Shown one piece after another: positions 5,223-61,389 of a stretch of DNA of 64,000 nucleotides (positions are counted from its first letter, which is position 1; the number at the start of each line of letters is the position of its first letter). Position numbers and translations under genes: made by a program. The notes below the pieces were generated by a model that was not told the origin of the DNA, did not search any database, and saw only the letters and a list, made by a program, of their open reading frames with translations. This stretch comes from Candidatus Falkowbacteria bacterium (GTDB lineage: Bacteria; Patescibacteriota; Patescibacteriia; Patescibacteriales; WJLG01): positions 5,618 through 69,617 of the forward strand of contig CAVVFV010000010.1 of NCBI GenBank assembly GCA_963747695.1, read 5' to 3'.

Positions 5223-5284
5223 TGTCGGGAATAGACCCTCCCCGTCTCCGCCAGGGGCAGAGCCACCCCTCCCGGGGAGGGGAC
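5223..5284. repeat. GC-rich REP-like hairpin element (intergenic)
   Basis: 'ccaggggcagagccacccctcccggggaggggac' is related to the reverse complement of the 60357.. terminus ('ccaggggctgtccacccctctcaagagggg'). Confidence 0.65.
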
Positions 5285-13333: not shown

Positions 13334-13342
13334 TGACACGCT

Positions 13343-13440
13343 TTATAATTTTTTAATTTTTAAAGAAATCCTAATTTTTAATTTTTTTAAAAATTAAGCC
13401 TTAAAAATTCTTTAAAAATTACAAAATTACAAAATTAAAT
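13343..13440. repeat. AT-rich inverted-repeat element, copy 2
   Basis: Shares its core with copy 1. Shares both termini with copy 3 ('ttataattttttaatttttaaa' and 'tttaaaaattacaaaatt'). Confidence 0.75.
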
Positions 13441-13446
13441 CTTCTC

Positions 13447-16518: not shown

Positions 16519-16520
16519 TA

Positions 16521-16713
16521 TCGTATTTCGTATTTCGTATTTCGTATTTTGACTGCCCAGCGATTTGCTCTTGAATTTTGGGCGTAAAAATACAAAAAAC
16601 GCCAGACGAATCATTGACTAATCCCCACTGTTGTTATTAAATTAGATTATACCATAAAATGCCAAGAGAATAAAATATACGAAATACCAAATACGAAATA
16701 CGATATACGAATT
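16521..16713. repeat. 'cgtatttcg/cgaaatacg' inverted simple repeats flanking the divergent promoter region
   Basis: Left arm 16521..16550 ((tcgtattt)n). Right arm 16672..16713 (its imperfect complement), abutting the rel ATG. Confidence 0.7.
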
Positions 16714-18475: not shown

Positions 18476-18496
18476 AGTGAAACACCTCCAATCAAT

Positions 18497-18599
18497 ATTC
18501 GTATCTCGTATTCGGTATTTCGTATTTCGTATATATTTTCAGCAACATTCTGTCCAAAAACATACACGAAATACGAAATACGATCTACGAAATACGATT
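18497..18599. repeat. 'cgtatttcg' family hairpin between hisS and rpsU
   Basis: Arms 18497..18534 and 18562..18599 are ~85% complementary, with a 27-nt loop. Confidence 0.75.
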
Positions 18600-19971: not shown

Positions 19972-19980
19972 ATTCTTATT

Positions 19981-20118
19981 AATTTAAATTTTATAATTTT
20001 TTAATTTTTAAATAGTTTTTAAACTCTAATTTTTTAATTTTTTAAAGGCCAATTTAAATGATAATTTTAAAAATTAAAAATTTGGATTTATTTAAAAATT
20101 ACAAAATTTAAAAATTTC
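19981..20118. repeat. AT-rich inverted-repeat element, copy 3
   Basis: 19991..20012 is identical to 13344..13365, and 20091..20108 is identical to 13411..13428. Confidence 0.75.
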
Positions 20119-21039: not shown

Positions 21040-21090
21040 GCCATTTATCAACAGCGGCAAACAACCAGAGACAAAGTAATTAAAAAAAAT

Positions 21091-21192
21091 GTTATACTGC
21101 CAAATTGTTATATTGTTACGCAACGAAATAAATAACAATGGTGTTTATTAAAATCGTTGCGTAACAATATAACAATTTAACAATATGACAAT
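21091..21192. repeat. 'empty' class-II hairpin, 25-bp perfect stem
   Basis: 21102..21126 'aaattgttatattgttacgcaacga' is the exact reverse complement of 21154..21178. The 27-nt loop begins 'aataaata', as in 4553..4660. Confidence 0.85.
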
Positions 21193-23203: not shown

Positions 23204-23293
23204 AAAATATCCAATAAACAATATCAAATATCCAAAAAATATTAAAATATTTAAATATTTTTTAAAATATTGGCTATTTGATATTGGATATTT
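23204..23293. repeat. 'aaatatccaata' hairpin filling the yebC-ruvC gap
   Basis: 12-bp perfect stem 23205..23216 / 23282..23293 with an imperfect extension. The arms touch the ruvC start and the yebC stop. Confidence 0.7.
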
Positions 23294-33700: not shown

Positions 33701-36700
33701 CGTCTGAAGCGCCGGTGACGGCATTTTCCAAAGAACTGAAAACATGAGCGATGGAATTAACCGTCGCGTTGGCAACATCGGCTGGCATTCCGCCGGTCGC
33801 CGTGACCAAAGTCCATTGCGAGGTGGAAATCTTGCCGGAGATATAAGCGGCCTGATCGGTATCATAAGTTACTTCATCGCCCACGCCCATATTCACCGCC
33901 GTTTGGGCCACAGAGAAAGTGCCGATGCCATCAGTAATGTTAAGAGTCGGCGAACCGGTTTTGTGGTCATCGGTATTCTGGCCGACGGAATAATAAACAT
34001 TGATGGCGGTATTTTGATATTCAGACGCGCCGATATCCCAAGCTGTTCCTTGCGGACGAACCGTTCCGGTAATGTCATTATCAAAAGCCAAGTCTGGATC
34101 AGCGGAAAGATTCGCACCCTGGCCGATCACCGGCGAACCAGCCTTGAGCCGATAATCATCATCGGCCGGATCGGCAAAAATGGTCGTCGAAGCGTAGCTG
34201 GAAAGATCGACACTGTTTGTGCCGGGATCAGCACCGATAGAATAAGCATTGTTGGTCGACTCATCGTCGCCCATGATCGTCACACCATAATCCGAATCGG
34301 TGCCACCATAGACAAGATTATTTTTAAGCTTCAGCAGATAATCAGTGGTGCCGCCGTTATCATTGACGATGCCATCAAAAGCGTTAACCACTGTATTATT
34401 GTCGATAGCCAATTTAGAACCTGGGCCATAAGCCGTGATCAGGATCCCGTAATTATTGACGCTGTGCGCCGGAGCAATGATTATATTATTAAAAATATAA
34501 TCATAGTAATCAGCTTGCGACCGCACTGGAGCAGAAATCTCCTCATGAGCGGTATTCTGCGCCGGGCCGCTGTCTTTGATGATATTGTCGCTCAAATAAA
34601 CACCTTGGGCATAACCGTCATAATCGGTCTGCAACCCGATGCCATAATCATAATCATATCCGATATCATCGATCTGCAATCCTTCCACGCGGGTATAATC
34701 GCGCCAAATAATCAGCGATTCCGTATTGGAAACCGGCTCGATCCGGTATTTGCTATCATCCCACTTGCCATTCGCGCGCTGACTGACGCCGACCTGGCTG
34801 GGCAGATACGGGGTAAAGATATTGACATAGTTGCGGGCGCTAACCGTCCAGCCGTCCACCTCGGCCTTATCGTCGGGCGCATCGGCATAGCAAGCGACAT
34901 TCCAAACCGAATTCGGCGTGACCAAGTCACGATTGTTTTCATTCGGATCAGTGTCAGTCGGGAAATTATCGAAAGGAACCGGAATGGAAGTATTGATAGC
35001 AGTGTACCAGCCCACGGCATTCCACAGCGAAGTGTAGGCTCGATAAACCGCCCAATGCGAAGCATTCGTTATATTAATGGTAGATGAAGAACCGTGCTCG
35101 GTTTGTACACCGTAAGAAGAATCGGAATTGCGGTGATCGATAAAAACGATCGAATCGCCGGAATCCAGACTACCATTATCGTTGCTGTCATAAACGATCG
35201 CATCGCCGACGCCGGAATTGTCCGGCAAGGAGCCGCCGGAAAAAGTCGCCGCGCCGTTATTGATGGTCAAAGTGAATGATTCAGTGCTGGAAGCCAACGC
35301 AGTAGTGCGGCCTGGACCGACCGAACGATAGATTTGCGTCGGCGCAGTCAGGGTAATATCCACGAATGTGCTGGCGCGATCGGAAATATTGCCGCTGAAA
35401 TCTTTAGCCCAGGCATAAAGATTTTTATGGCCGCCGGTCAAAAAATTATGAGTGAACGGAACAGTTGCCGACCAATCCGGATTATCACTTACCGGAGTTG
35501 AAGATGATTCACTAACCAAATAACCATTAATGCCGGCATCGTCGGTCGCCGTCAAGGAGGTTATGGAAACATTCAGGCGAGATGAAGAAGTGGCGATTGA
35601 GAACGAGGTGATTACCGGCGGTGAAACATCTAACGTCTGAAAGGTCTGATCTCCGTAAATACTAGAGTCGATCTGAAAATGATAAATAGTATTGGCTGAC
35701 AACCCCTTCAAGTTGATAGTATGCAAAGTAACGATTGCGGCGGAGGAAGAAGACAAGCCGTAGCCAGTAGATTCACCATAATCAACCTGCGATGATTCGG
35801 CGTCCGCGGTCTGCCAGATTATTGTGGCGGTTGTTGCTCCAGGAATTATCTGATAATCAAATTCCTGCGCGCCAATATCCCAAACGCCGGAAGCGGGTCT
35901 GGCCTGGCTGACAAAATCAGAATCGAGAGGCAGAACCGAATCGTCGGTAAGATTGGCGCCCATGCCGATTACCGGCGAACCAGGCTTGAGGCGGAAATCT
36001 TGGTCGGCCGGGTCGGCAAAAATTGAAGTTGAGGCATAACCGGAAATATCCAGGTCGCTTGCGCCAGGATAGCCATGATCCCAAGAAGTATAGGCATTAT
36101 TATTCTCTGTACCTCCATCGACAACATCATCGGCGAAATCCCAGCTGGAGCTGTCATAAATCAAATTGTTTTTCAATTCCAAACGATAATCAGTGACACC
36201 CGGCAGATAATCATCAATGCCGTCGCCCATACCGACGATGGTATTGTTATAAATGGCAATCTTAGTACTGCTCGACACTGGGTCATTATCGCCGCCGTGG
36301 ATGGAGATTCCGGGAATATCAAGGCGGTTCACGGAATCATAGAGCAGATTATTAAAAATGTAATCATAATAATCTGTTTGCGACCGGAGCGCAACTTCGA
36401 TCAAGCGGGAATTCGAATCAGCACCCCCTTCTTTAAGAATATTATCGTCGACGTAAATTCCTTGCACGGCCAAACCGTCATTGCCATCGGTCCGCAGCTC
36501 GATATCGTCAATCCATTGCGTGCCGGCGGTCGTCGATCTGATCTGTAAACCTTCAATCCTGGTAAAATTCTGCCCGACGTATATGATGTCATTGGAATTA
36601 GTCGGATAAACATTCGCCGGCGACAGATGATATTTGCTGTCATCCCATTTGCCGGCGTGACGTTGGGAAACTCCAACTTCCGTAGGCAGATAAGGAGTAT

Positions 36701-39700
36701 AGATTCTGACGTAATCATTCGCATTAGTAACCCAACCCTCGACTCTCGCAACATTAGAGTCAACCGCATCACCATAACAAGCGATATTCCAATCCCAGTT
36801 CGGCGTGACTAAATCGCGATCAGAAAGATTGGACCAGGACACGTCGAAAGAAACCGGAATCGAAGGATTCGGAATTAGGTTCCAATCAACGGCATTGCCC
36901 AGCGAAGTATAGGCGCGATAAACCGCCCAATGCTGTTTATTGGAAACATTGACCATGGTGGAAGTGGCACCGTCTTCGGTTTGCACTTCATAAGACGAGT
37001 CGGAATAGCGGCGCATGATAAAGACGATCGAATCGCCAGAATCCAGACTGCCGTTATCGTTGCTGTCATAAACGATCGCGTCTCCGACTCCGGCATTGTC
37101 CGGCAAAGTGCCACCGGAAAAAGTCGCCGCGCCGTGATCAATCGTCAGCGTAAATGATCCATCACCGGAAGCAAGCGCGTCAGTATTATCCGGTCCGACC
37201 GAACGGTAAATCTGCGCCGGCGTGGTCGTGGCCGGCGTTTCGTTCTCATTTTCAGCCGGTTTAAAAGCCGCGATGGCCACGCTATTTTGAACCATGCCAC
37301 CGGCTACCGTCCAGTTGGGATCAATGCTGTCGGTCGTCGAGGCAACCAGGTAAGCCATCACTCCGACCATCGAATTGCCGTTATTAATTTCTTTGCTGAT
37401 GGCAAAACTATCGCTTATTTGCGGATTAGCATCGTCATCATAAGGATTAGTAAGCAGGCTGATTAAAAGTTCACCGTTTACGGCCGGCGTAACGCTGCCA
37501 GTATTAATTGTATTGCTGGTGGTAGTCGTGTTGCCATTCTCGGCATCGAAGACATCGCTCCCCGTAGCTGTGCCGCTCCAGGCGCTGACCGTCAAAGCCG
37601 GCCAATTATTACTGGCGGCGTTAACGGAAAAAGTTTGCGCGGCGCTAGTGGTGGCATTATAGGCATACCAGATCTGCGCGAATCCTCCGGCATTCGAATT
37701 ACCATAAGCTTTGAGAGGATGCCAGATATTATCCAGGCTGTCAGTTATGCTCAAAGTTGAAGTTGATTGATTAACATGAAGACCGACGACCAGTAGCGTG
37801 GCGCCAGTGGTATTGATCGGCAACGTCGTGACGCTATCATCGGAACCGCCTCCGGCCACGGTAGAAGCTATCCGGGAAATTTTACCGGCAGAAACGATAA
37901 CCGAAGATGAAGAAAATTCATCCGCGCCGATATCCCAGGCACCTGTTCGGGTTTGATTTTTTACGTCAACCGAAAACGCTAAATCTAGGTCGGCGGAAAG
38001 GTCAGTGCCCTGATCAATCGCCGGAGAATCTTTAGTTAAGAGAAAATCATCATCGCTCGGGTCGGCAAAAACATCAACCGCCGCATAACCGGCAAGATCC
38101 AAATTATCCGAACCGCCCGGATCAGAACCGACCGTATAAGCATTATGACTGGAAGCGGCGGCAAATGAACCGATATAATCCGTGACATTGCCGTAAAGCA
38201 GGTTGTTCTTGAACAAGTTACTGGTGCTCCCCTGATTTATCCCCTGATTACAATCAGTGATCGTATTAGCATAGACATCGGAAGAAGTGCCGGAAGTGGA
38301 ATTAAGATAAAGTCCGATCCCCTGATCGGCGTCAAAACCGTAGATTATGTTGTCAAAAACATAGCCGTGTTGCGAACCGGTCGAAGAATAATTAATGCCT
38401 CGGCCGCCAGAAGTATTACCGCTCCCTTCTGTTATGAGATTTCCGCTAATGCGGACATCAACCACGGACTGATCGGAGTTATAAACATAAATTCCGCGAT
38501 TGTAATTAAAAACATAGGTCGGCGTTTTAAGCTGCAGCCCTTCGATTCTCGTATAACTGTCTTCCACTAAGATGGTATTCTCTGCTGTCTCGGTTATTGG
38601 CGGCACGATATTGTATTTGCCATTATCCCATTTGCCACGGTGGCGTTGAGATACATTTACTTCAGTCGAAGTACTATTCGGGGTGTAGATTTTAAGATAA
38701 TTATCCTCGCCAGTTGTCCAGCCGCTGATCGTTACCGCGGTTTGATCCGGCCCTGAGTCATAGTAACAAGGAATATTCAAAACATAATCTCCCCCGACCA
38801 AGTCGGTGGTGTTAAGATAATTCGCGCCGGAAGCGCCGGTCACGGCATTGGCCAAAGAAGAAAAAACGTGAGAAATTTTCAAAACTTCAGCAGTGGTTGT
38901 TGCTTCCGGTTCACCGCCAGTGGCGGTAATGACGTTCCAAACCGTATTTGATTGCTTGGCCGAAATATAAACTGTCGTTGTCGCACTGGCATCGCCATAG
39001 GAAATTTTGTCGCCCACGCCCATATTGGTGGCAGTCTGGGCGGCAGAAAAAGTCGCGACGCCGTCGGAAATGGTGATGGTCGGCGAGCCGGTTTTGTGAT
39101 CGTCAGTATTTTGACCGACGGAATAATAAACATTGAGTGTTATTGGCACATATTCATCGGCGCCGATGTCCCAGGCAGCACCTTGCGGACGAGTTATCCC
39201 GGCAAGATCATAGTTAAAAGAAAATTCTGAATCGTTAGCAAGATCGGCGCCTTGATCGATCACCGGCGAATCCGCCTTAAGACGGAAATCATCATCGGCC
39301 GGATCGGTAAAGATATCACCGGCGGTGCAGGCCGAACCGCCGCAAGCAGTTGTCAGATCAACTAATCCCGCGGCAAAATCATCACCATGCCGCTCGGAAT
39401 CAACGGCATTATTTTCGGTTGAAGTAGCCAAAGAGGCGTCATACCAGTCGGGATTGTTGAATAGAATATTATTTTTGGCGGTGAGATTGATTTTCTGGCC
39501 GGTGTCCTGCCAGGCATCGAGAGAATTACCATTATTAACAATTGTATTGTTATAGATAAATACATTGGTGACATAAGCCCCGTTTTCCTGCCCGACTGCT
39601 ATTCCTTCATCAAAATCATAAATGATGTTATTTGCTATTTGAGCTTTATATCCCGGCGCCACATTATCAAGAGCAATCCCCCGGCTTTCCGAAATATTAT

Positions 39701-42700
39701 GCCCTTTAATAATATTATCGGTAAAAGATTGGTCGCCAGCGCCGGGACGAAACAACACCGCGTAATTCCAGTCGGGTATGGGATAAGTCGTCCCCTCGAT
39801 CTGTAAGCCGTCGATAATCAAATAATCCGTATCGACATCAAAACCACTATCCCCGGCTTCAATCGTTAGCGAATCAGCACTGGGAGAAATGTGATATTTG
39901 GCCGGATCCCAAACCGCGCCGTGGCGCTGGCTCGCGCCGACTTCGGAAGATAAATATGGAGTATAGATGCGTAAATAATTTTTCGGTCCAGTTACCCAGC
40001 CGGCGGCAAAATTAACCGCCGTCGTGTCAGTAGCGTCGCCGTAACAGGCGATGTTCCAATATTCATTATTGGCGACCAGATCACGGCCCGAGCCGGCGAA
40101 GTTATCGCTCGACACGACCAGTGAAGGATTAGGATTACCGTTGACCGCGTCATTCAGAGAAGTATAAGCACGATAAATTTCCCATTTACTTTGATCGGAA
40201 ACGCCGACTGGCGTCTGGCCAAGATGATCTTTAATAGTATATTCGGTCGAAGAAATTCTGCCCTGGATGAAAACAATTTCGTCGCCTGAATCAATCGAGC
40301 CGTTACTGTTGGCATCGAATTCGATCGTGTCGCCCACGCCGACCTTGTCCGGCAGTGGCTCCGAGAAAGTCGCGGTGTCGCCCGAGATGGACAAAGTATT
40401 TTCCGCCGAACCGGAAACTAGTGCGCCAGTACTGCCCGGACCGACTGAGCGATAGATTGGCGTGGCGGTTGCCTGAACATATTCATCAGCGCCGATATCC
40501 CAAGCCGCACCTGGCGGACGGACTGTACCGGCAATATCATTATTGAAAGACAGATTAGGATCGGCGGAAAGATTGGCGCCCTGACCAATTGCCGGTGAGC
40601 CAGACTTGAGACGATAATCCGCGATAGCCGGATCTTTAAAAACAGTGGTCGAAGCGACATCGGACAAATCCAAACCGTTGGCATTGTGCGCTCCGTCGCC
40701 GTATTCGTAAAAAGACGGTGAAGAGCTGGCCCAGGCATCATGATCAGAATCTCCGGTAAAGACTCCGGTGTAATCAATGCGATTGCCCATCACCAAATCA
40801 TTTTTGGCATCGGCCATCTCCCAACCGGAATTGATTCCGCAATATGAATCGGAAATCGTATTATTATAAACGCTCGTCAGGCCCATATCCCAGACACCAT
40901 CCGATTGGTCGCCGCTAAAACCATAAATCAAATTATTATAAATACTCGTGCCGTCCTGAGCTACGGCGATGCCGGCAGAGTGCGCACTGGCCGGACTGCC
41001 GGACTTGATAATATCATCGCTGATGATTACCCCGCCCGCCGGCGCATTATCATCATCATAATCGATATTTATTCCGCCGCTATCGCCATTGTCGGATGTC
41101 TGCGGTGATTCGATCTGCAGGCCCTGAACCCTGACATAATTAGTGAATACATCGATTATATTAGTGCTTTCGTTTTCAGGACTGTCGCTGTTGCTATCGA
41201 TAATATTATATTTGCTTTCGTCCCACTTCCCCTGATGCCGCTGACTGACACCGACCTCGGAAGGAAGATATGGCGTATAGATCCTCAGATAATTATATTT
41301 ATCGGTGATCCAGCCATGCGTCTCGACTCCGCTACCGTCGTTGTCGTCCGGGGCATCGCCATAGCAAGCGACGTTCCAAATTTTATTTGACGCGGCGATA
41401 TTCTTTAGGCCAGCCTGATAATCGAATGGAACCATTATCGCTGAATCGGGTGTCAAATTAGGATTATCCGCCCAATAATCATTGAAGTTGCCAACCGCGT
41501 CAGCCAAAGAAGTGTAGGCGCGACGGATTATCCAGTGCTGAGAATCGATTACCGAAGTGGTTGTGGCCAGGCCGGCCGCAGTCTCTACAGAATATTGCGT
41601 ACTGGAAATCCTGCCGTCGATAAATAGAATCGTATCTCCGGAATCAATCGCATCATTGCCATTCGTATCGATTTCTAAAGCATCGCCGACACCGATGCGG
41701 TCAGGCAAAGGCGAAGTGAAAGTTATCGTGCCGGCGCTCAAAGTCAATAAATTATCGCTGCCGCCTTGCGCCAGCGCGGCGGTGTTTCCCGGACCGACCG
41801 AACGATAAATTTGCGCCGGGCTAGAAGTAACTAATTGATCCGCGCCGATGTCCCAGGTTGTGCCGCGGGACTGGCCGTCGATATCGGTTGAGAAAGATAA
41901 ACTCGGATCGGCGGACAGATCCGCGCCTTGACCGATGGCGGCGGTGTCGCCCGCCACCAGATGGAAATCATCATTGGCTGCGTCTGTAAAAGTTATCGCC
42001 GCATCATTCTGCGGATTGGAACCAGGCGCATCGGTTAATGTCGGGCCGGAAAGATTATTGGTGGAAGATGCTAGAAAATAAATCCCTTCTTCTCCGCCTC
42101 CTCTTCCATAGTTGACGAAATTATTATAAGCCAGATTATTTTTGGCGATATATTTTCCATTCTCGTCGATAAACCCCATGTTCGAATCGTAAACGGTATT
42201 ATTGTAGACATAGCAGCTGCCGACATCGCAATAAATGCCTCCGGCATAAGCATTACCGGCATAATTCAAAAAACCATAGACGATATTATTCCAGGCGTAA
42301 AGATCGAAATTATTGTCGGTTCCAGCAGCATCGTGTCGCTGAATGCCGTCCGAATTACTATTATAGTTCAACACTCCCCAAACTATATTATTGGAAACCC
42401 ATAATTTGCTGTTGGTTACGCCGGAATAATCATCACCGATGCCATCAACTTCATTGCCATTGGCAGGCGAAACAACTTTTACTTGCAGTCCGTCGATTTT
42501 GGCGAAAGGTCCAAGCACATCAATGCCTTCCACTTCCCCGCCGCCCGACGTTATTTCCAGACGATATTTATTAGTACTCCAAACACCTGAATGCCGTTGC
42601 GACAGATTTACTTCAGAAGCCGTGTCAAAAGGCGTGTAAATTCTCAAATAGTCGCTCGCACTGGTATTCCAATCGGAAACAGTGACAGCGGAAGTATCCG

Positions 42701-44432
42701 GTCCGGAATCGTAATAGCACGGGATATTCAAAATATAATTTCCGGCCACCAGATCGGAAGTGTTAAGATATTTTGCGCCGGAAGCGCCGGTAACAGCATC
42801 TTCCAAAGACGAGAAAGCATGCGAAATTTTTAAAACTTCAACGGAAGTTGTCGCCTCCGGCTCGCTGCCGGTGGCGGTGACCACGTCCCAAACGGTTTGC
42901 GACTGCTTGGCGGAAATATAAACTGTGGTGGTGGCGCCGGCATCGCCAAAAGAAATTTTATCGCCTACTCCCATATTAGTCGCCGTCTGGGCAACAGAGA
43001 AAGTGGCGACGCCGCCGGAAATGGTTACCGTCGGCGAGCCGGTTTTGTGATCATTGGTATTCTGACCAACGGAATAATAGATGCTGGTGGTGGCGTTCAC
43101 AAATTCATCCGCGCCGATATCCCAGGTACCGGTGCGGGCCTGGCCGTCGATGTCGGTATCAAATGCCAGATTAGTATCGGCGTGTAAATCCGCACCTTTG
43201 TCTATGGCATCAGTATCGGCAGAGACGAGATGAAAATTTTCTGTTCCTGCTCCAGTATTAACGAAAGTGAGCGTCTTACCTGTGTAATAAGTATTGAATG
43301 GTGGCGCAGTTCCGTCTTCAGAAAGATTGTTGGTGCTGGAAGAATTAAAAGAACCAGAATAATCAATGGTGTTATTGTAAGCGATGTTATTTTTGACAAT
43401 TACTTTCCCTCCACCATTATAAAGCACTCCTGTTCCACAACCATATACCGTATTATTGTAAATATAATCAGTGTCTGACGATGATCCGCCATAACTTATG
43501 CCAATACATTTAGTAGCGAAACCATAGACAATATTATTCCATACCTCGTAAGTAGTTTTATAAGCATAGTCATAATCAAAAGGAACTATCCCAAAAAGCC
43601 CACTTCGATTAGTGTTGGTTTGGCGAACAATGTTGTTAGAAATCTTTATAACACCCCCGTCAGATTGATTGTTTTCAGCCCACATTGCGCCATTATCACC
43701 GCCCCCAGTTCCAGTTAGTTCTATCTGAAGACCATCAATCCATAAAGATTTAACAGCAGAATAAATAACATGCCCTACGCTTTCAGGGGCGACAAGCCGG
43801 TATTTCCCCATATCCCATTTCCCTTCATGCCTTTGCGAACTGTTGGCTTCCGTCGAAGTATCATCAGGAGTATATATTTTAATATAATTATCCGCACCGG
43901 TCATGTAACCGCTAATCGTGACAGCGTTTGTATCTGCAGCGGAATCATAATAACAAGGGATATTTAAAATATAATTTCCGGTAACGAGATTGGAAGTATT
44001 AAGATAACTTACGCCGGAAGCGCCAGTGATAGCAGCCTCCAAAGAATTAAAAACGTGAGAAATTTTCAAGACTGTGGCCGAAGTTGTCGCAGTCGGCTGG
44101 CCGCCGGTTTTAGTTTCCACATTCCAAACGGTTTGTGATTGTTTGGCGGAAATATAAACTGTGGTGGTGGCGCCGGCATCACCATAAGAGATCTTGTCAC
44201 CCACACCCATATTACTAGCCGTTTGCGCTTCGGAAAAAGTGGCGACGCCGTCGGAAATCGTGATGGTCGGCGTGCCGGTCTTGTGGTCGGAAGTATTCTG
44301 ACCGACGGAATAATAGATATTGGTCGCGGCTTGCGCGGCTCCGGCCGGTAAAAAAATAAAAAAGAAAACAATAAAACCGCCAACGCAAAAAATTGGTGCG
44401 AAATAACGCCAGTTTGAACTTCCTTTAGTCAT
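24741..44432 (-). CDS. giant (6,563 aa) secreted modular protein: 11 parallel-beta-helix modules plus FN3, Ig-like, duplicated beta-sandwich, InlB-B-repeat-like and conserved C-terminal domains
   Basis: Uninterrupted 19,692-nt ORF. AGGAGG Shine-Dalgarno 5 nt before the ATG. N-terminal TM/signal 'FAPIFCVGGFIVFFFIFLPAGAAQA'. Each module ends in 'D[IL][DA]G..R....WD[IV]GA', as in choice-of-anchor-Q / pectate-lyase-like beta-helices. FN3-like 'ATI.W.T.E...S.V.YG......YHF' units are present. Confidence 0.9.
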   Translation of the reverse strand: MTKGSSNWRYFAPIFCVGGFIVFFFIFLPAGAAQAATNIYYSVGQNTSDHKTGTPTITISDGVATFSEAQTASNMGVGDKISYGDAGATTTVYISAKQSQTVWNVETKTGGQPTATTSATVLKISHVFNSLEAAITGASGVSYLNTSNLVTGNYILNIPCYYDSAADTNAVTISGYMTGADNYIKIYTPDDTSTEANSSQRHEGKWDMGKYRLVAPESVGHVIYSAVKSLWIDGLQIELTGTGGGDNGAMWAENNQSDGGVIKISNNIVRQTNTNRSGLFGIVPFDYDYAYKTTYEVWNNIVYGFATKCIGISYGGSSSDTDYIYNNTVYGCGTGVLYNGGGKVIVKNNIAYNNTIDYSGSFNSSSTNNLSEDGTAPPFNTYYTGKTLTFVNTGAGTENFHLVSADTDAIDKGADLHADTNLAFDTDIDGQARTGTWDIGADEFVNATTSIYYSVGQNTNDHKTGSPTVTISGGVATFSVAQTATNMGVGDKISFGDAGATTTVYISAKQSQTVWDVVTATGSEPEATTSVEVLKISHAFSSLEDAVTGASGAKYLNTSDLVAGNYILNIPCYYDSGPDTSAVTVSDWNTSASDYLRIYTPFDTASEVNLSQRHSGVWSTNKYRLEITSGGGEVEGIDVLGPFAKIDGLQVKVVSPANGNEVDGIGDDYSGVTNSKLWVSNNIVWGVLNYNSNSDGIQRHDAAGTDNNFDLYAWNNIVYGFLNYAGNAYAGGIYCDVGSCYVYNNTVYDSNMGFIDENGKYIAKNNLAYNNFVNYGRGGGEEGIYFLASSTNNLSGPTLTDAPGSNPQNDAAITFTDAANDDFHLVAGDTAAIGQGADLSADPSLSFSTDIDGQSRGTTWDIGADQLVTSSPAQIYRSVGPGNTAALAQGGSDNLLTLSAGTITFTSPLPDRIGVGDALEIDTNGNDAIDSGDTILFIDGRISSTQYSVETAAGLATTTSVIDSQHWIIRRAYTSLADAVGNFNDYWADNPNLTPDSAIMVPFDYQAGLKNIAASNKIWNVACYGDAPDDNDGSGVETHGWITDKYNYLRIYTPYLPSEVGVSQRHQGKWDESKYNIIDSNSDSPENESTNIIDVFTNYVRVQGLQIESPQTSDNGDSGGINIDYDDDNAPAGGVIISDDIIKSGSPASAHSAGIAVAQDGTSIYNNLIYGFSGDQSDGVWDMGLTSVYNNTISDSYCGINSGWEMADAKNDLVMGNRIDYTGVFTGDSDHDAWASSSPSFYEYGDGAHNANGLDLSDVASTTVFKDPAIADYRLKSGSPAIGQGANLSADPNLSFNNDIAGTVRPPGAAWDIGADEYVQATATPIYRSVGPGSTGALVSGSAENTLSISGDTATFSEPLPDKVGVGDTIEFDANSNGSIDSGDEIVFIQGRISSTEYTIKDHLGQTPVGVSDQSKWEIYRAYTSLNDAVNGNPNPSLVVSSDNFAGSGRDLVANNEYWNIACYGDATDTTAVNFAAGWVTGPKNYLRIYTPYLSSEVGASQRHGAVWDPAKYHISPSADSLTIEAGDSGFDVDTDYLIIDGLQIEGTTYPIPDWNYAVLFRPGAGDQSFTDNIIKGHNISESRGIALDNVAPGYKAQIANNIIYDFDEGIAVGQENGAYVTNVFIYNNTIVNNGNSLDAWQDTGQKINLTAKNNILFNNPDWYDASLATSTENNAVDSERHGDDFAAGLVDLTTACGGSACTAGDIFTDPADDDFRLKADSPVIDQGADLANDSEFSFNYDLAGITRPQGAAWDIGADEYVPITLNVYYSVGQNTDDHKTGSPTITISDGVATFSAAQTATNMGVGDKISYGDASATTTVYISAKQSNTVWNVITATGGEPEATTTAEVLKISHVFSSLANAVTGASGANYLNTTDLVGGDYVLNIPCYYDSGPDQTAVTISGWTTGEDNYLKIYTPNSTSTEVNVSQRHRGKWDNGKYNIVPPITETAENTILVEDSYTRIEGLQLKTPTYVFNYNRGIYVYNSDQSVVDVRISGNLITEGSGNTSGGRGINYSSTGSQHGYVFDNIIYGFDADQGIGLYLNSTSGTSSDVYANTITDCNQGINQGSTSNLFKNNLLYGNVTDYIGSFAAASSHNAYTVGSDPGGSDNLDLAGYAAVDVFADPSDDDFLLTKDSPAIDQGTDLSADLDLAFSVDVKNQTRTGAWDIGADEFSSSSVIVSAGKISRIASTVAGGGSDDSVTTLPINTTGATLLVVGLHVNQSTSTLSITDSLDNIWHPLKAYGNSNAGGFAQIWYAYNATTSAAQTFSVNAASNNWPALTVSAWSGTATGSDVFDAENGNTTTTSNTINTGSVTPAVNGELLISLLTNPYDDDANPQISDSFAISKEINNGNSMVGVMAYLVASTTDSIDPNWTVAGGMVQNSVAIAAFKPAENENETPATTTPAQIYRSVGPDNTDALASGDGSFTLTIDHGAATFSGGTLPDNAGVGDAIVYDSNDNGSLDSGDSIVFIMRRYSDSSYEVQTEDGATSTMVNVSNKQHWAVYRAYTSLGNAVDWNLIPNPSIPVSFDVSWSNLSDRDLVTPNWDWNIACYGDAVDSNVARVEGWVTNANDYVRIYTPYLPTEVGVSQRHAGKWDDSKYHLSPANVYPTNSNDIIYVGQNFTRIEGLQIRSTTAGTQWIDDIELRTDGNDGLAVQGIYVDDNILKEGGADSNSRLIEVALRSQTDYYDYIFNNLLYDSVNRLDIPGISIHGGDNDPVSSSTKIAIYNNTIVGMGDGIDDYLPGVTDYRLELKNNLIYDSSSWDFADDVVDGGTENNNAYTSWDHGYPGASDLDISGYASTSIFADPADQDFRLKPGSPVIGMGANLTDDSVLPLDSDFVSQARPASGVWDIGAQEFDYQIIPGATTATIIWQTADAESSQVDYGESTGYGLSSSSAAIVTLHTINLKGLSANTIYHFQIDSSIYGDQTFQTLDVSPPVITSFSIATSSSRLNVSITSLTATDDAGINGYLVSESSSTPVSDNPDWSATVPFTHNFLTGGHKNLYAWAKDFSGNISDRASTFVDITLTAPTQIYRSVGPGRTTALASSTESFTLTINNGAATFSGGSLPDNSGVGDAIVYDSNDNGSLDSGDSIVFIDHRNSDSSYGVQTEHGSSSTINITNASHWAVYRAYTSLWNAVGWYTAINTSIPVPFDNFPTDTDPNENNRDLVTPNSVWNVACYADAPDDKAEVDGWTVSARNYVNIFTPYLPSQVGVSQRANGKWDDSKYRIEPVSNTESLIIWRDYTRVEGLQIDDIGYDYDYGIGLQTDYDGYAQGVYLSDNIIKDSGPAQNTAHEEISAPVRSQADYYDYIFNNIIIAPAHSVNNYGILITAYGPGSKLAIDNNTVVNAFDGIVNDNGGTTDYLLKLKNNLVYGGTDSDYGVTIMGDDESTNNAYSIGADPGTNSVDLSSYASTTIFADPADDDYRLKAGSPVIGQGANLSADPDLAFDNDITGTVRPQGTAWDIGASEYQNTAINVYYSVGQNTDDHKTGSPTLNITDGIGTFSVAQTAVNMGVGDEVTYDTDQAAYISGKISTSQWTLVTATGGMPADVANATVNSIAHVFSSLENAVTGASDANHLDTNDLVAGNYILNIPCYYDSGPDTAAVYITGWTTGLSNYINIYTPDDIANQSNRSQRNNGKWDDEKFALTVTDDAVIDDAADFLKIDGLQLKTIDSNAYEASGFTTDGVDGGAHIWLSDNIIAGVVSGKSYGGSGISMNYYNNAGDPIRYFDVWNNIIYGFDNKDDGTGIAGNSGDATVVSRIYNNTVSDCGVGILNGSDTLEKNNISYGNRYDYYGNSINASSTNNAYANGNAPAVDALDLSSYPATAIFTDPLNNDFRLAAGSPVKGQGADLSADPELAFTDDITGAIRPAGEWDIGAVDYSFQVIRGNNSATIIWSTDEATSSLINYGTAESYGLSSSSAAVVTAHSITIKGLAPKTVYHFEMSGTTYGDQTFTSLDIVAPTITAFSIPAATYLLTVPLTFSASDDTGVTGYFVSESSSTPQLNDKKWSSTVPVSYAFSSFGFHKLYAWVRDADGNLSAPASSTVTITFSAPKPVYYSVGQNTDDHKTGNPTLTIASGVGTFSVAQTAADMGVGDKVTYDADQVAYISGKISTSQWTLTTATGATPADISGATVNSITHAFASLEDMVGGAADTDHLDTSDLVAGNYILNIPCYYDSGPDTSAVTIDGWNTGPSNYLKIYTPDNVATEVNLSQRHQGKWDDSKYNLQISGTDVSAISVQSVGYVKIEGLQIKSTFLGQYGCGLDRGNSVAGAAWFSDNIIWGVLTQDGYIEGIGAHDQDDNSTVYAWNNIIYGFGYAPYNSYQGGIYCDSGNCYAYNNTVYQSNGGVIAYGGNFAAKNNISYDNVTNYVGEDFTASSTDNLSGPTQSGAFGSDPQNDARITFVNANNGDFHLVASDTAAIGQGTNLSADSEIAFSTDIDGQTRGTSWDVGADQYVQATATPIYRSVGPGSTGALVSGSLANTLTISGSVATFSSALPDKIGVGDAIEFDANSNGIIDSGDEIVFIQGRISTTEYVVKDHLGQTPVGTSGQSKWEIYRSYVSLNDAVNGILNPSLVVPSDNFADSGRDLVANNEYWNIACYGDATDTAAVNFAAGWVTGPENYLRIYAPYLSSEVGVSQRHGAIWDPAKYHVSPNTNDSTISGSGVDYLIIDGLQIEGTSDLQSSGQNALGVSGAAGNHYILDNILKGHAIAQSFGIVSGSLAEGHRAYVINNLIYDFGAGLRIRGGEDVSTTDAFIYNDTFANNTYTYYNYAAEGSVINFTAKNNIFFGNPGELDASVSGSTNNAGNFNYYGEDFSTNLLDLNTACGGSACAAGDIFANPADDDYRLKAGSPVIGMGANLTSDPDYAFNSDLAGNSRPATGAWDIGADEYVATTTNVYYSVGQNTDDHKTGSPTLTISDGVGTFSVAQTATNMGVGDEVTYDTNNVAYIAGKISTTQWTLVTALGATPADISGASVDSIAHAFASLENAVSGSSGANYLDTSDLVAGNYILNIPCYYDSGPDTSAVTIDGWNTGSSNYINIYAPNNTTSQVNQTQRHSGKWDETKYALIDNNTQNELITVNSKFVRLDGLQTEIIRSGNAWATTYEIYPNDINSDIRVSDNISRANFTGLINGGTALSNSSWDSPANIKVWNSLFYDYSSANHNSYGFGLSDGNIYSYSNTLVNCDQSIFAEATGTIEAENNIVQNAISSGYSGNISGDYNISNLNDAPGAHSKDSATVSFISIANNDYHLSADDTTAIGAGINLSSDPYLPFSDDIDGQARGSVWDIGADQFVAPIILAIGTSTAGATATITWITDEAATSTVEYGLTDAYGNASSSDAFVTEHSITLRGLDVPATYHYRIKTTDADGSETVSADHTFTTFSTSIRLLASTGVIDSGDEGEGVTTPAINTTGASLIVVGLHVYNSTSTVSITDSMNNIWHHLKAYGTSAGGDNSGYNGYAQIWYAYHPTTSPEQTFSVNGASSNYPVLTVTAWSGIATDSDPYDTGNGSTTNSGNTISTGSVAPASAGELLISAFSSGDSNGTDFGIDSGFNISDSEHNWSDMDGAMAYYIAPDTDSYDPTWTVTGDVNNSAAIAVFRPADNNISSSSDITPPVITLTGTSTTADSATITWTTDEPATSSVSYGLDSGYGLASSSDSLETEHSITLRGLEADTIYHFQIGSTDAAGNRATSSDHTFTTAESGGGGPPSDNTPPTIDSFVVSSTSASLSVPIVLTASDDTGVTGYLVNEFSAIPSADDPEWRSTATTTYTFADAGSKTLYAWARDAAGNISASASAPVTVTLPTYTVGGSVSGLSGTVTLQNNGSDDLDLTSNGPYAFATALNDGAAYNVTVLNQPSGQLCSVDHYYGTIAGAAVSDINISCEDISAPLVIYQISSSTTAYTATISWLTNVAADSAVNYGPDENYGSVSSSTPSSTSNSVTLSGLTPNNIYHFQIIADDSSGDSATTTDFTFQTALSPYTLAYSAGANGSILGNSNQSVAPGADGAAVTAEPIAGYHFTLWSDSSTANPRKDLNVAGNISVSAGFAINTYTITASSSSYGTIAPSGITTKNYGESQGYTVTATTGYHVTGILVDSVLVSTSSTYIINNIQANHVVSAAYASDAGADTYVIGGRVSGLSGTVILQNNGGDNLIISANGVFNFATELDDAAGYNVTVLTNPGSQTCTISSGQGIVADADVNNILVSCATVHNSGNGSGSGGGGGGGGGGASAPVKPPDTTPPGLVSNLFATSSDGQITLSWTNPSDSDFAGVKIYHKLGSPLSGYTDPLASVIYLGNAQKFVDSGLSNGQTYYYSIYSYDNNLNYSTARTTAATAGSGQATVVTPVDILPPSVVVPASGSSSGGVVTSLIGASSAVVNQVTADEADTLLANAQYVALPAVELSVYQRVIALATAPLTAQEKITIAYFIHVGTPTTHILGAGERGGSVSSFQSAYGYLPVTLADWQDVLKIGNGRWPTKQSPGAIKTAQESFKTIYGRPANMNNTYDNNAVTIMAYGLRPAQRNQTNEKIAIKAYYYFFKHNPVTARAWDAVRAIAYSGAKR
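28545..44330 (-). repeat. 11 tandem ~400-450-aa beta-helix modules inside the giant ORF
   Basis: Module-terminal WD[IV]GA codons lie near 43126, 41855, 40503, 39173, 37937, 35883, 34040, 32804, 31083, 29774 and 28565. Two N-terminal flavours occur: 'IYYSVGQNT.DHKTG' (modules 1, 2, 5, 8, 9, 11) and 'IYRSVGPG' (modules 3, 4, 6, 7, 10). Confidence 0.85.
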
Positions 44433-47868: not shown

Positions 47869-47916
47869 GATCCCTGCCTGCCGGCAGGCAGGCTTTGCGA
47901 CACGCTCAGGATGACA
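47869..47916. repeat. GC-rich REP-like palindrome ('cctgcctgccggcaggcagg') with 'caggatgaca' end
   Basis: Perfect 20-nt palindrome at 47873..47892. The end motif is shared with 58056..58088 and 61295..61344. Confidence 0.65.
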
Positions 47917-54550: not shown

Positions 54551-54708
54551 GTGATTTTGGAAGGCATCGTTTCCGTAGCGAAACCGAAAAAATCAGAGAT
54601 AGAATTTTTTGGATTTTTCGAGACGTACTCGCGTACGTTGAGAAAATCCGAAAAATTATAGCCTGATTTTTACGGTTGCAGCAGGAAAAAGATGCCTTCC
54701 AAAATCAC
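54551..54708. repeat. 158-nt long imperfect hairpin 5 nt downstream of tRNA-Phe
   Basis: 18-bp perfect basal stem 54551..54568 / 54691..54708. Apical palindrome acgtac-tcgc-gtacgt centred at ~54630. Confidence 0.8.
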
Positions 54709-58077: not shown

Positions 58078-59568
58078 TTAGGATGACAATGTATTTTTAA
58101 ATGTAAAACCCATTAATCCCCAAAACAACAAGACGCCGAAATGCAAACTCCAAAAATAATGGTCGAACATCATTATTATAACTAAAATCAAGAGTATCGA
58201 CAAGTTTAAAATATTCTTTTTGTTCCACGATTTGACAAACAGATAAACCAATAAGACGGCAAAGAATAATAATCCAAAAATTCCGGTCTCCGCCCAGACC
58301 AGCAGAAAGACATTGTGCACCGGATTAAGCGTGTCCCAGGCGCGCTGCGGATCATTGACGGCGAGCGCTTTGGTGTAATTTCCGATACCTGAGCCGAATA
58401 GCCAATTTTTCCGGATCAGCCCGAGTGAATCATCCTGATAGGTCTTCCTTTCCGAAATTGATTTAAGCTCCAGCCGGGACGAAACCTGGGCGCGGGTGAT
58501 GAATAAATTCTCGTAACTAACAAAAATGACTCCGAATAAGAACGCCGCGATGACGGCGATCAATCCCAGCCGCTTTAAGGCCGCCCAATCCCGGTTGAAC
58601 CAATAAAAAATGGCCATCAAGATCAAACCGCCGGCCAGAGCCAGCGCGGCCGACCGCGAAAAGGTAAAGACGAAAGCAGACGATAAAGTAAGAAGTAAGA
58701 AGTAAAAAGTAAAAATATTTATAATTTTTAACTTTTCGCTTTTAACAATATCTCGCTTGAAGTAACCGCTTAAATAAATATAAACCAATATTATTAACCC
58801 GATCGCCAAAAGGCCGCCCAGAATATTCGGGTGATCCAGGGATCCGTAGGCTCGCAGCCAGCGTTCGGAAATACCGTTCGCTCCGGCGGTTTCGATCACC
58901 GCCGTGCCAAGATCTTTTGAAGAATGAGCGGCCAAACCCAGCCATTTATCCGCGAAGGTTCCCTGCAGCAAGAATTGCCCGATCGCCAAACCGGACTGGA
59001 TCAGCAGACCAGAAAAAAAGGCCGCGGCCAATTTAACCTGACTGTAGCGAGCCTTGACGATCAGCCAGAATAATCCCAGGCCGAGCAAAAAAATCAGATA
59101 GCGATAAACCGCCAAGATGGTATCGGATGCGAAAAAAATCGAGATAAAAACAAATAAATCCAAGCCTGACAAAATCATCCAAATCCCCGCTCCTTTCCAA
59201 GGATCCCCCCTCCTTTCCAAGGAGGGTTTTAGGGGTGGTTCTGGTTGGTGGTTCTCGAGTTGGTCTATTCCCGGAATAAGTTCATTGCGTTTCTGCGCCT
59301 TGGTTCGCCATGACCAAATAAAATATAAAATCAATAAACCGATCAATAAAATATCCGTCCCGTACAGCGCGATCGTCCCGTATTCCCAAACGCCGCCGCC
59401 CAGCTGCGTCTGGCGCAAAATCAACTTTGTCTGCCAAGGAAGCAAAAATACTAACAAATACAAACCATATTCGAGTAAATTTTCAATTTTCAATTTACAA
59501 TTTTCCCTGGCCGCGTCCCGCGTCCGCGGGCAGGCAAACAATTTTAAAATTTTAAATTTTTTAAACAT
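58078..59568 (-). CDS. O-antigen ligase / polymerase-like (Wzy_C-type) polytopic membrane protein
   Basis: 496 aa with more than 10 TM segments. 'FSRSAALALAGGLILM' resembles the Wzy_C loop region. The ATG directly abuts the upstream stop (TAAATG). Confidence 0.7.
   Translation of the reverse strand: MFKKFKILKLFACPRTRDAARENCKLKIENLLEYGLYLLVFLLPWQTKLILRQTQLGGGVWEYGTIALYGTDILLIGLLILYFIWSWRTKAQKRNELIPGIDQLENHQPEPPLKPSLERRGDPWKGAGIWMILSGLDLFVFISIFFASDTILAVYRYLIFLLGLGLFWLIVKARYSQVKLAAAFFSGLLIQSGLAIGQFLLQGTFADKWLGLAAHSSKDLGTAVIETAGANGISERWLRAYGSLDHPNILGGLLAIGLIILVYIYLSGYFKRDIVKSEKLKIINIFTFYFLLLTLSSAFVFTFSRSAALALAGGLILMAIFYWFNRDWAALKRLGLIAVIAAFLFGVIFVSYENLFITRAQVSSRLELKSISERKTYQDDSLGLIRKNWLFGSGIGNYTKALAVNDPQRAWDTLNPVHNVFLLVWAETGIFGLLFFAVLLVYLFVKSWNKKNILNLSILLILVIIMMFDHYFWSLHFGVLLFWGLMGFTFKNTLSS
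59185..59259. repeat. GC-rich hairpin/direct-repeat element in frame in the ligase-like ORF
   Basis: 'ctcctttccaagga' occurs twice (59190..59203, 59210..59223). Hairpin ccctcc-ttggaaa-ggaggg. Translated 'PPLKPSLERRGDPWKG'. Confidence 0.6.
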
Positions 59569-60627
59569 TTAGTTTATTCTTAATTCTTCTTTCTTAATTC
59601 TTAATTGTTCGCGAAACTCTCGCCTGCGGTCATTCTCATGGAACTTCAGCATTTTATCATTGATCACCACCCTGGTGTCGCCTGTCGCCGCCATCGCTTT
59701 GATTTGAGGATTAATTTTCCACCACTGGATCGTTTGGGCTGATTTTTCCAGCCAATCGCCCAACACGCCTGATAAAAAAAATGTCCGGATTCTTTTAATC
59801 GTTCCTGAAAAGGCATTATCGGCAACGCACCGGATTTTTACCGGCTGTTTCGGCAGAATGTTAGGAAAAAAATTCTTGATCCATGAATTGGCAACCCAGA
59901 GTCTTTCATAACATTCCAGGCCGTAAATCGGCTCCAAAAAACCGAGCCAGTAACAAAAATAGGGGTCGGCCAGATCGGTAGGCCCGCAATATTTTGCGGG
60001 CTTTAAAGCGATTTCTTCTAAATTCAAATTATCTTCGCTTAAATAAAAACTTAAACAAACCCGATCCGCGGTTTTCTGGCCGCGGGCGCGCAGGCGAAAT
60101 AAATCCAAAATTATCGTGGCGCAAAATCTGGTCAGCCATAAACGTTTCGGCGCGGTGATGATGAAAAAATCAATATCCGATTCGGGGCGATAATAAAAAT
60201 TATTGCAAATTGCCACCATCTTGACGGTCGGAATAAAATGCAGCAGCCAGGCCGCGCGCTTGGCGATCTTGAATTTCTTCTCGGATAAATAAAAAAATTC
60301 TCGCCTTTTTTCGATCAACCCCTCACGTCCAGCCAAAAAATAAAAACCGTTTAATTCCCCTCTTGAGAGGGGTGGACAGCCCCTGGCTGGACGGGGTGTG
60401 TTAAGGTTGGGCGAAAAAAATAAGCTTGATGTGTTCCCCATCGTAACACACCCCGCCTCGCCGGGCTCGGCACCCCTCTCGAGAGGGGACTTTTCGCCAA
60501 GCACTTGTAGTAATTCTCCCAATTCCGCCTTCACTGGCAAAAACCGCCAGATTTCCATGGCGGTCAGCGGATAATCGAAAATATCCAGAAAAAGCAAGGG
60601 TTTTATAATGTCTTCTTGGCTAACCAT
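59569..60627 (-). CDS. conserved hypothetical protein; possible nucleotidyltransferase-fold ('SDIDFFIIT'), tentative
   Basis: The 354-aa track ORF starts at a TTG (60633); an ATG lies at 60627. It contains a ~135-nt GC-rich palindromic insertion read in frame. Confidence 0.6.
   Translation of the reverse strand: MVSQEDIIKPLLFLDIFDYPLTAMEIWRFLPVKAELGELLQVLGEKSPLERGAEPGEAGCVTMGNTSSLFFSPNLNTPRPARGCPPLSRGELNGFYFLAGREGLIEKRREFFYLSEKKFKIAKRAAWLLHFIPTVKMVAICNNFYYRPESDIDFFIITAPKRLWLTRFCATIILDLFRLRARGQKTADRVCLSFYLSEDNLNLEEIALKPAKYCGPTDLADPYFCYWLGFLEPIYGLECYERLWVANSWIKNFFPNILPKQPVKIRCVADNAFSGTIKRIRTFFLSGVLGDWLEKSAQTIQWWKINPQIKAMAATGDTRVVINDKMLKFHENDRRREFREQLRIKKEELRIN
60355..60490. repeat. GC-rich palindromic element inserted in frame in ORF 59569..60627
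   Basis: The termini 'cccctcttgagaggggtgg' (60357..) and 'ggcacccctctcgagagggg' (..60488) are inverted copies. An inner 11-bp inverted repeat joins 60393..60403 and 60444..60454. Translated as 'SPLERG...PPLSRGE'. Confidence 0.75.
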
Positions 60628-60698
60628 TGACAAAATTAATATAATATGTAAGAATCAAGTGTCAAAGAATGTCCATTAACCTCAAAAAGGGAGATATC

Positions 60699-61294: not shown

Positions 61295-61344
61295 GATTCC
61301 TCGCCGCGCCGGCTCCGCCCAAGGCGGACGCAGTCGGAATGACA
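61295..61344. repeat. GC-rich REP-like element ('gattcc...ccgcccaaggcgg...ggaatgaca')
   Basis: Internal hairpin ccgcc-caa-ggcgg. The ends gattcc/ggaatg are complementary. Confidence 0.55.
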
Positions 61345-61389
61345 GGGGGAAGGTTAAACCTTCTTACTTCTTACTTTTTACTTGTTACT

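Follow-up and report, generated by a model that had tools for sequence, protein, structure and literature searches.

Palindromic 'selfish' DNA that inserts in frame into genes is a textbook peculiarity of Rickettsia. Here we describe a GC-rich palindromic element at positions 60356-60489 of a 64,000-nt stretch of a Candidatus Falkowbacteria genome (contig CAVVFV010000010.1; the whole stretch is called the window below), which lies inside a gene for a conserved Patescibacteria protein and is read through in frame. Related repeats have been described elsewhere: Di Nocera et al. 2013 (PMC3733652) reported intragenic repetitive extragenic palindromic (REP) sequences in several phyla, with singles and dimers inside open reading frames (ORFs) that encode 20-80 aa, as well as CGTC-tagged REPs without a dedicated transposase, and mentioned neither Patescibacteria nor a link to the domain family DUF559. 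Because those intragenic REPs occur in other phyla, in-frame behavior is not unique to Rickettsia, and in-frame palindromic repeats are an already known kind of behavior. The original prediction, made from the letters of the window, noted that such elements are not known to have been described for bacteria of the Candidate Phyla Radiation (CPR), and the literature we searched likewise gave no description of in-frame palindromic elements in CPR/Patescibacteria. [quoted passage not shown]

The element is a 134-nt near-palindrome inside the minus-strand ORF 59569-60633 and consists of two inverted units of ~47 nt, unit A (60356-60403) and unit B (60444-60489), on either side of a 40-nt spacer. 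Its parts are as follows; comparison loci and proteins carry our L and P labels.

59569-60633, minus strand: host gene, encoding a conserved Patescibacteria protein of 354 aa from a TTG start
60356-60489, unstranded: whole element, a gene-less doublet in which a spacer parts two inverted repeat units, whose minus-strand translation gives host residues 49-93
60357-60372, unstranded: left terminal 16-nt palindrome CCCCTCTTGAGAGGGG, the outer hairpin of unit A
60373-60391, unstranded: variable inner hairpin of unit A (CAGCC-CCT-GGCTG)
60392-60403, unstranded: left arm of the inner inverted repeat, CGGGGTGTGTTA, 12 nt
60404-60443, unstranded: 40-nt spacer, the loop of the long hairpin, poorly conserved (~50% identity with L001)
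60444-60455, unstranded: right arm of the inner inverted repeat, TAACACACCCCG, 12 nt
60456-60472, unstranded: variable part of unit B (CCTCGCCGGGCTCGGCA), near-identical in 4/4 element-bearing homologs
60473-60488, unstranded: right terminal 16-nt palindrome CCCCTCTCGAGAGGGG, the outer hairpin of unit B

This anatomy bears out the original prediction of an ORF that reads through a ~135-nt palindromic element with inverted, self-hairpin ends and ~45 added residues; the inner inverted repeat, noted there as 11 bp, measures 12 nt. Each unit runs from the outer hairpin (CCCCTC-NN-GAGGGG) through TG into a lineage-variable inner hairpin and then C/GGGGTGTGT. The terminal palindromes are perfect or near-perfect, and their pattern has 4 matches where 0.14 are expected, a number reached in 0/100 shuffles. 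On either strand the element folds into one long hairpin (-88.7 and -85.5 kcal/mol), with z-scores of -7.75 and -8.27 and no equally stable structure among 200 shuffles. In L081 and L082 the inner hairpin of unit A is CCGCC..GGCGG instead, so that both sides of the stem have changed with pairing preserved. No Rfam family matched the element, which gave only sub-threshold miRNA-like hairpin matches, and an Rfam scan of the whole window returned four tRNAs. From outer end to outer end of the terminal palindromes the insert spans 132 nt, a multiple of 3 as had been proposed for checking, and it encodes the peptide SPLERGAEPGEAGCVTMGNTSSLFFSPNLNTPRPARGCPPLSRGE at residues 49-93 (GAEPGEAGCVTMGNTSSLFFSPNLNTPR is an example peptide of the element's translation). 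Three of its six frames are open; since 15% of shuffles equal or exceed this, an open frame alone is unremarkable.

The 354-aa host protein matched no Pfam family. A protein in a public collection (P0001) is identical to it over P0001's 352 aa, and among 825 homologs those with a named source belong to Patescibacteria or its candidate phyla (Buchanan- and Falkowbacteria). Gene order is kept in relatives: RmuC, a small ORF, the host gene, a Wzy_C-family gene and an M16 peptidase. An AlphaFold2 model built from a 42-sequence alignment had a mean predicted local distance difference test score (pLDDT) of 84 and a predicted template modeling score (pTM) of 0.82. The pLDDT fell below 50 only at residues 51-98, that is, in the insert and a few flanking residues, and the 45 element-encoded residues are predicted to be disordered. 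Foldseek matches of the model were weak (best E 0.018) and mostly to Pol-beta-type nucleotidyltransferases (AadA, MNT, CD-NTases), in agreement with residues S152, D153 and D155, which are invariant in the alignment. We infer from this weak match that the protein has an N-terminal helical domain followed by a Pol-beta-type nucleotidyltransferase-like fold, and the predicted layout places the element in the linker that joins these two domains. Homologs are 294-466 aa long overall and 294-427 aa among the 42 aligned, where the variation falls mostly in three internal loops and the C-terminus. The loop that holds the element, between ELGEV.. and NGFYFL, is termed site 1.

Comparison with homologs identifies the element as inserted repeat DNA and excludes native coding sequence. 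Homologs below ~45% identity have a short site-1 linker, and nearly all closer relatives carry an insert. From the N-terminal motif to GFYFL we counted 30-41 aa in L006, L007 and the other measurable distant loci, and 62-83 aa in L001-L005, L081 and L082. The original prediction held that a homologous segment at this position in distant relatives would mark native sequence; no such segment is present there. Additionally, in loci retrieved by C-terminal motifs only, the N- and C-terminal domains lie in one frame in all seven insert-bearing cases, for which the frame-alone chance is (1/3)^7 = 4.6e-4. Frame-breaking versions of the insert that split the gene were sought and none was found, the late-starting matches being contig edges, masked N runs or divergent N-termini. 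The reading frame is thus kept through the element in these alignments, and its conservation suggests that the element is translated.

The homologs also differ in what they carry at site 1. L001 carries this element at site 1 in the orientation seen in the window (85% nucleotide identity over 150 nt; by eye on the alignment, ~97% in the arms and ~50% in the spacer), and its mean column identity to the window is 90% over a 350-nt aligned region that includes the element. In the syntenic orthologs L081 (GCA_028707065.1) and L082 the element is inverted relative to the gene, so that their sense strand corresponds to the window's plus strand. Their copy measures 134 nt against 132 nt, and an upstream flank 2 nt shorter compensates and restores the frame; L081 has an extra third unit in tandem. 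L002-L005 hold unrelated palindromic doublets with GTCAT..ATGAC ends, and L007 has no palindromic doublet in this loop. By their peptides, the inserts at site 1 across the homologs fall into at least eight repeat families, and the alignments show that the loop accommodates the element in either orientation or unrelated palindromic doublets.

Several observations on these homologs may be recorded here. The L001 homolog (1727-2800) has a mosaic look. Inspected by eye, the N-terminal half, with the element in it, lies close to the gene of the window, and the C-terminal half is like P0023, a homolog that lacks the insert; either recombination or chimeric assembly of a metagenome could account for this. 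In some homologs (P0014, P0021, P0026, P0031 and others) two or three different repeat families stand in tandem within a single loop; P0014, for example, combines two doublets, CHTG..RRDD and CHPRE..LRGND, with the singlet THP..PLFRGD. Peptides derived from repeats are also found at site 2, at site 3 and at the C-terminus. At site 3 of L081 and L082 (10866-10913, compared with window positions 59700-59830) a single unit has taken the place of a similarly long native segment instead of just extending it, which implies that insertion was accompanied by deletion or rapid divergence. Other palindromic families, GC-rich and with GTCAT at their ends, are represented by single units in intergenic gaps of the window itself, at 61296-61345 and 47869-47916; one (GTCATTCCGAC..) lies 3' of RmuC and the other is GTCATCCTGAGC..., and these families also fill the site-1 loop in L002 and L003.

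Units of the element's own family are dispersed well beyond the host gene. Alignment of the arms gave a unit of ~46-50 nt that reads (TA)ACMCACCCC-G, a small variable hairpin and CACCCCTC-NN-GAGGGG-A, the variable hairpins of window-type units being CAGCC..GGCTG or GCCGGGCTCGGC. Two further sequences of this kind are present in the window, the first of which corresponds to the related intergenic sequence noted in the original prediction at 5223..5284.

5235-5281, plus strand: diverged single unit (nhmmer E 1.6e-5), intergenic, directly 3' of the minus-strand gene 5289-6413
59204-59239, minus strand: unit-like sequence (CCACCCC-TAAAA-CCCTCC..GGAGGG-GGGA), in frame in a variable loop (59176-59307) of the adjacent Wzy_C / O-antigen-ligase-family gene

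The Wzy_C loop, between predicted membrane segments, is a second hotspot: the window, L001, L002, L003, L081 and L082 each have a different repeat-derived insert there, and L005 has none. Single units in frame were found in Wzy_C (L081, L003), in a Lactamase_B-family gene with a metallo-beta-lactamase fold (L081), in the gene for the CCA-adding enzyme (L082) and at site 3 of the host gene (L081, L082). With a relaxed unit pattern we counted 16 copies in the window and 1.37 Mb of Patescibacteria loci taken together, and none in a block-shuffled control; 14 of these are within ORFs of 299 aa or longer, and every one of the 14 belongs to the clade of the window, L001, L003, L081 and L082. Furthermore, a strict 25-base pattern was found in 5 stretches of viral contigs and in at least 120 stretches of metagenome contigs, whose GC content ranges from 32 to 69%. 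Among the metagenome matches listed, ~10% by hand count lie well inside long ORFs, the rest being in short ORFs or in none. Head-to-head doublets with the geometry of the window element occur in L127, L144, L146/L154, L148 and L182. Across 144 distinct units the middle segment is nearly always different and still forms a hairpin (mean -5.8 against -2.0 kcal/mol for shuffles, with 71% at or below -3), and the sole flank signal is a strong [A/T]-T-T preference 3' of GAGGGGA. Together with both orientations among homologs, the units in four other gene sites and this metagenome dispersal uphold the original proposal of in-frame insertion in the manner of Rickettsia palindromic elements (RPEs).

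Within the window, a scan of GC-rich 50-nt windows was too noisy at 47% GC to find repeats. A sliding-window hairpin scan of the whole stretch found no other strong GC-rich intragenic hairpin; its other outliers were AT-rich intergenic palindromes, intergenic GC-rich hairpins, tRNA-region sequence and weaker coding-region matches. No unit-like insert was seen in the translated NDK gene, which has its Pfam match in two separate stretches.

A candidate partner emerged from the genes next to the units. When ORFs adjoining units were clustered over 125 pattern-selected contigs, one small protein recurred in 8 of them, between or beside units, and it is a DUF559 protein (PF04480, E 1.6e-33) with a Vsr-like PD-(D/E)xK endonuclease domain. 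Seven of these eight contigs have the left arm ([CCCCTC..GAGGGG]TG-hairpin-C GGGGTGTGT) ahead of the DUF559 gene, 0-70 nt from its start codon, in diverged form in L132; in L172 the copy upstream of the gene has decayed and the only intact one lies downstream. At the other end, five of the eight show ACACACCCC, either as such or diverged and sometimes accompanied by the remainder of the unit, across the stop codon or after it. Contigs that have both arms show the geometry of the window doublet, with the DUF559 gene in the place of the 40-nt spacer, and the motif of the left inner arm CGGGGTGTGTTA abuts the DUF559 start codon in these full-length relatives. DUF559 genes bracketed by hairpin-bearing inverted sequences were seen in many phyla (L104, L123, L132, L138, L140, L172, L176, L190, L208, L209, L211, L212), with TCCCCTC..GAGGGG-TG-hairpin-CGGGGTGTGT on the start-codon side and ACACACCCC..CCCCTC..GAGGGGA on the stop-codon side. 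Among these loci, L172 and L176 have a composite of two inverted units in direct copies on both sides of the DUF559 gene, and L123 and L209 have a second copy of a start-of-gene remnant 3' of it.

The association also appears when the proteins are chosen without reference to the repeats. Of 120 DUF559 homologs picked by protein similarity, 66 have a C-terminal tail that runs into ACACACCCC (xTP/THP), compared with 0/120 in the control, and 31 read on into PL.RG. Four contigs from the 120-homolog list were examined at the DNA level, two of them coding for proteins without the tail, and both flanks were present in all four. With the DUF559 5' flanks of these four as its only input, and hence independently of the unit pattern, an nhmmer profile matched the 64-kb window at 60356-60403 (plus strand, E 2e-5) and 60444-60489 (minus strand, E 6e-6), with no other significant match in the window. 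The element thus has a left arm of the form TCCCCTC-loop-GAGGGG-TG-hairpin-C/GGGGTGTGT at 60356-60403 and an inverted right arm of the form ACACACCCC-(hairpin or TAAAT)-CCCCTC-loop-GAGGGGA at 60444-60489 (compare L190 and L208), and between them the 40-nt spacer and no DUF559 gene. Judged on these matches, its arms, geometry included, correspond to the conserved sequences on either side of DUF559 genes from many phyla. Many of the DUF559 genes chosen by protein similarity are on contigs of 0.5-2 kb, as would be expected of multi-copy DNA that breaks assemblies. In the titles and abstract openings of the DUF559 papers that we searched we found no link of DUF559 to palindromic repeats or mobility.

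Several observations weigh against reading the element as a mobile repeat with a DUF559-type partner. A blastn-short search with the element found no second full copy in the 64-kb window, and no target-site duplication was seen, the gene-strand flanks (..GAAAAG / element / ATTAAAC..) having no direct repeat. The full doublet was seen in frame at the site-1 loop only, and the copies in four homologs could derive from one ancient insertion followed by later rearrangement. The 23 window ORFs scanned against Pfam included no DUF559 gene, RAYT or other transposase. No DUF559 partner was found for the window's clade: a search for a Patescibacteria-specific partner with the DUF559 protein of L058 gave only 12 homologs, without clear unit tails. 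The DUF559 flanks could also be regulatory structures of the DUF559 gene instead of transposon ends. As a separate observation, the DUF559 gene of L058 (866-1261, Patescibacteria) lies directly downstream of a host-gene homolog, with a diverged hairpin (CTCCCC..GGGGGAG) and then GGAGGGG ahead of its start codon.

Some of these points would suit an inert relic, that is, one ancient insertion inherited vertically, now immobile and with no living partner. We regard this as unlikely, albeit a serious alternative. It accounts for the single full copy in the window, for the restriction of the full doublet to site 1 and for the divergence of the spacer to ~50% identity between the window and L001. 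However, the orientation of the element does not track overall protein identity, and there are lineage-specific gains in the third unit of L081 and in the singlet in its Lactamase_B-family gene. The near-identity of the arms between the window and L001 also speaks against an old relic; the flanking gene sequence there is well conserved too.

It is improbable, in our judgment, that the element is a classical REP/REPIN moved by a RAYT (an IS200/IS605-type Y1 transposase) encoded elsewhere in the genome, the DUF559 association being incidental. Two inverted hairpin units with a spacer, accompanied by singlets and tandem clusters, do form a REPIN architecture; many units have, by eye, CGTC before the inner stem and CCA after it, as in the CGTC-tagged REPs of PMC3733652; and our inspection covered 64 kb of the source genome. 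However, both units lack the GTAG tag, no Y1 transposase was present among the scanned window ORFs, and the ORFs next to units in 125 contigs gave the DUF559 cluster and no RAYT-like cluster. Moreover, PMC3733652 itself reports no dedicated transposase for CGTC REPs.

A functional structure, either a programmed inversion switch with two isoforms or an mRNA hairpin regulating translation or stability of the host transcript, is very improbable. In its favor, homologs show the element both ways round, conservation is far higher in the arms than in the spacer, and a flipped element would still leave the frame open in the window and in L001. However, flipping creates stop codons in L081 and L082, which makes an inversion switch unlikely; the scanned window ORFs include no invertase, no Rfam family matched, and many homologs hold wholly different elements, or none, at the loop. 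Finally, a native fast-evolving linker, palindromic by chance or generated in situ without insertion, is hardly credible, for although site 1 is a variable loop in all homologs, the idea is already contradicted by the hairpin z-score of -7.8, by the same 47-nt unit in other genes and in at least 120 unrelated metagenome stretches, by its opposite orientation in syntenic orthologs and by the distant homologs without the segment.

We therefore return to the non-autonomous, MITE/REPIN-like repeat as the most probable account of 60356-60489. The element may be a gene-less derivative of a DUF559-carrying element, analogous to a MITE or a REPIN, and a DUF559-type nuclease may have moved it in trans, or cleavage by such a nuclease may have led to its copying by repair. 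Once in place, a stop-free insert with a length of 3n in a flexible surface linker would be nearly neutral, and it could persist because its cost is small in a genome with very little intergenic space. The hotspot at site 1 might reflect tolerance of inserts, resident hairpins that attract further insertions, or both. More tentatively, and with rather less than even confidence, we propose that the units represent an undescribed class of mobile element, whose autonomous form would be a DUF559 cassette of ~0.5 kb between hairpin-bearing inverted repeats, spread across many phyla, and whose doublets and singlets would be copied in trans and have colonized genes in frame in at least one clade of Patescibacteria. 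If so, DUF559 would gain a function, a candidate mobilizing enzyme would be at hand for at least this subset of the CGTC-like REPs, for which no transposase is known, and the Patescibacteria units would be the CPR counterpart of the Rickettsia RPEs.

The occurrence of Rickettsia-like behavior in a Patescibacteria clade, with hotspot loops that gather unrelated families of elements, suggests a general outcome of repeat spread in very compact genomes. For annotation it means that in many CPR proteins the alignments, domain calls and structure predictions will be distorted by disordered inserts that repeats encode; recurrent peptides such as THP..PPLSRGE, SPLERG..GCV and CHPREGGDP..LDSRLRGND are signatures of DNA repeats and not protein motifs. 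The bracketing of DUF559 by the same arms provides a testable hypothesis both for the movement of REP-like elements without a RAYT and for the role of a very common domain of unknown function.

The window contains other features apart from the element. Long AT-rich intergenic palindromes lie at 21090-21190, 4556-4659, 54551-54708, 18490-18613 and 16519-16717; some share motifs (GTTATATTGT..., CGTATTTCGTATTT...), and the one at 21091-21190 gave the strongest hairpin signal in the scan of the window (z -7). They have the look of distinct repeat families or of regulatory structures. Very AT-rich intergenic palindromes (8-14% GC) composed of AATTTTTAAA-like words are found at 4082-4188, 13342-13433, 19973-20117 and 23205-23293. 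Three paralogous genes for small 23S rRNA intervening-sequence proteins (PF05635) are on the minus strand within 7 kb (132-512, 1316-1714 and 6556-6930). All but one of the 32 long ORFs of the window are on the minus strand, including a single ORF of 6563 aa at 24741-44432, and the region 8009-16614 contains ORFs of 1776 aa and 1055 aa.

Among the known systems, bacterial MITEs that fuse in frame (RU/ERIC, PMC2759123; Anabaena MITEs, QMITE1 and BOX, PMC10969869) share with the element a small size, inverted-repeat ends, the lack of a transposase gene and occasional in-frame fusion with host ORFs. The element is shorter than 300 bp, has terminal inverted repeats and encodes no transposase; unlike MITEs, it shows no target-site duplication, and its candidate autonomous partner encodes a Vsr-like nuclease and not a DDE transposase. 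DUF559 genes lie within the same arm architecture and are candidates for the mobilizing gene of a longer autonomous relative. Compared with the loci of DUF559 / Vsr-like endonucleases (PMC3424549), the arms of the element match the 5' and 3' flanks of the genes, whereas the element itself is gene-less.

REP/REPIN sequences with their RAYTs (PMC3116915, PMC3337134) offer a close architectural parallel, since there too two inverted hairpin units and a spacer form a long hairpin, singlets and clusters occur, and a protein gene bracketed by units is analogous to the REPtron. However, the window units lack the GTAG tetranucleotide, the associated gene is a PD-(D/E)xK DUF559 endonuclease and not a Y1 transposase, and the element and 14/16 units of its clade are intragenic where REPs are extragenic. 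Our literature search gave nothing relevant on REPINs or RAYTs in Patescibacteria. CGTC-tagged REPs (PMC3733652) are similar in that the inner stem-loop of many units is preceded by CGTC and followed by a CCA tail. On the minus strand unit A reads CCCCGTC-CAGCC-AGG-GGCTG-TCCA, with both tag and tail but a stem of only 5 bp, and unit B differs in having CGCC. The inner stems here are ~5-7 bp, compared with 8-9 bp (loop 4-5 nt) in PMC3733652, and the window units add the conserved modules CCCCTC..GAGGGG and GGGGTGTGT; by eye, many metagenome units fit the CGTC-REP layout better than those of the window.

The RPEs (Ogata et al. 2000, 2002, summarized in PMC10969869) are the nearest match in behavior. 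They are palindromic elements of ~100-150 bp, inserted in frame in unrelated housekeeping genes with a peptide compatible with the fold, in a small genome with little intergenic space and a high intragenic fraction. The window element, at 134 nt, likewise forms a long hairpin and lies in frame in a gene whose distant homologs lack it. In contrast to RPEs, it is GC-rich and modular, with an outer hairpin, a variable inner hairpin and C4/G4 motifs, and its unit family extends over many phyla, is mostly extragenic outside the clade and has full-length relatives that carry a DUF559 gene. Composition and host phylum thus differ, and the likeness that we claim to the Rickettsia RPEs is one of behavior and not of sequence membership.

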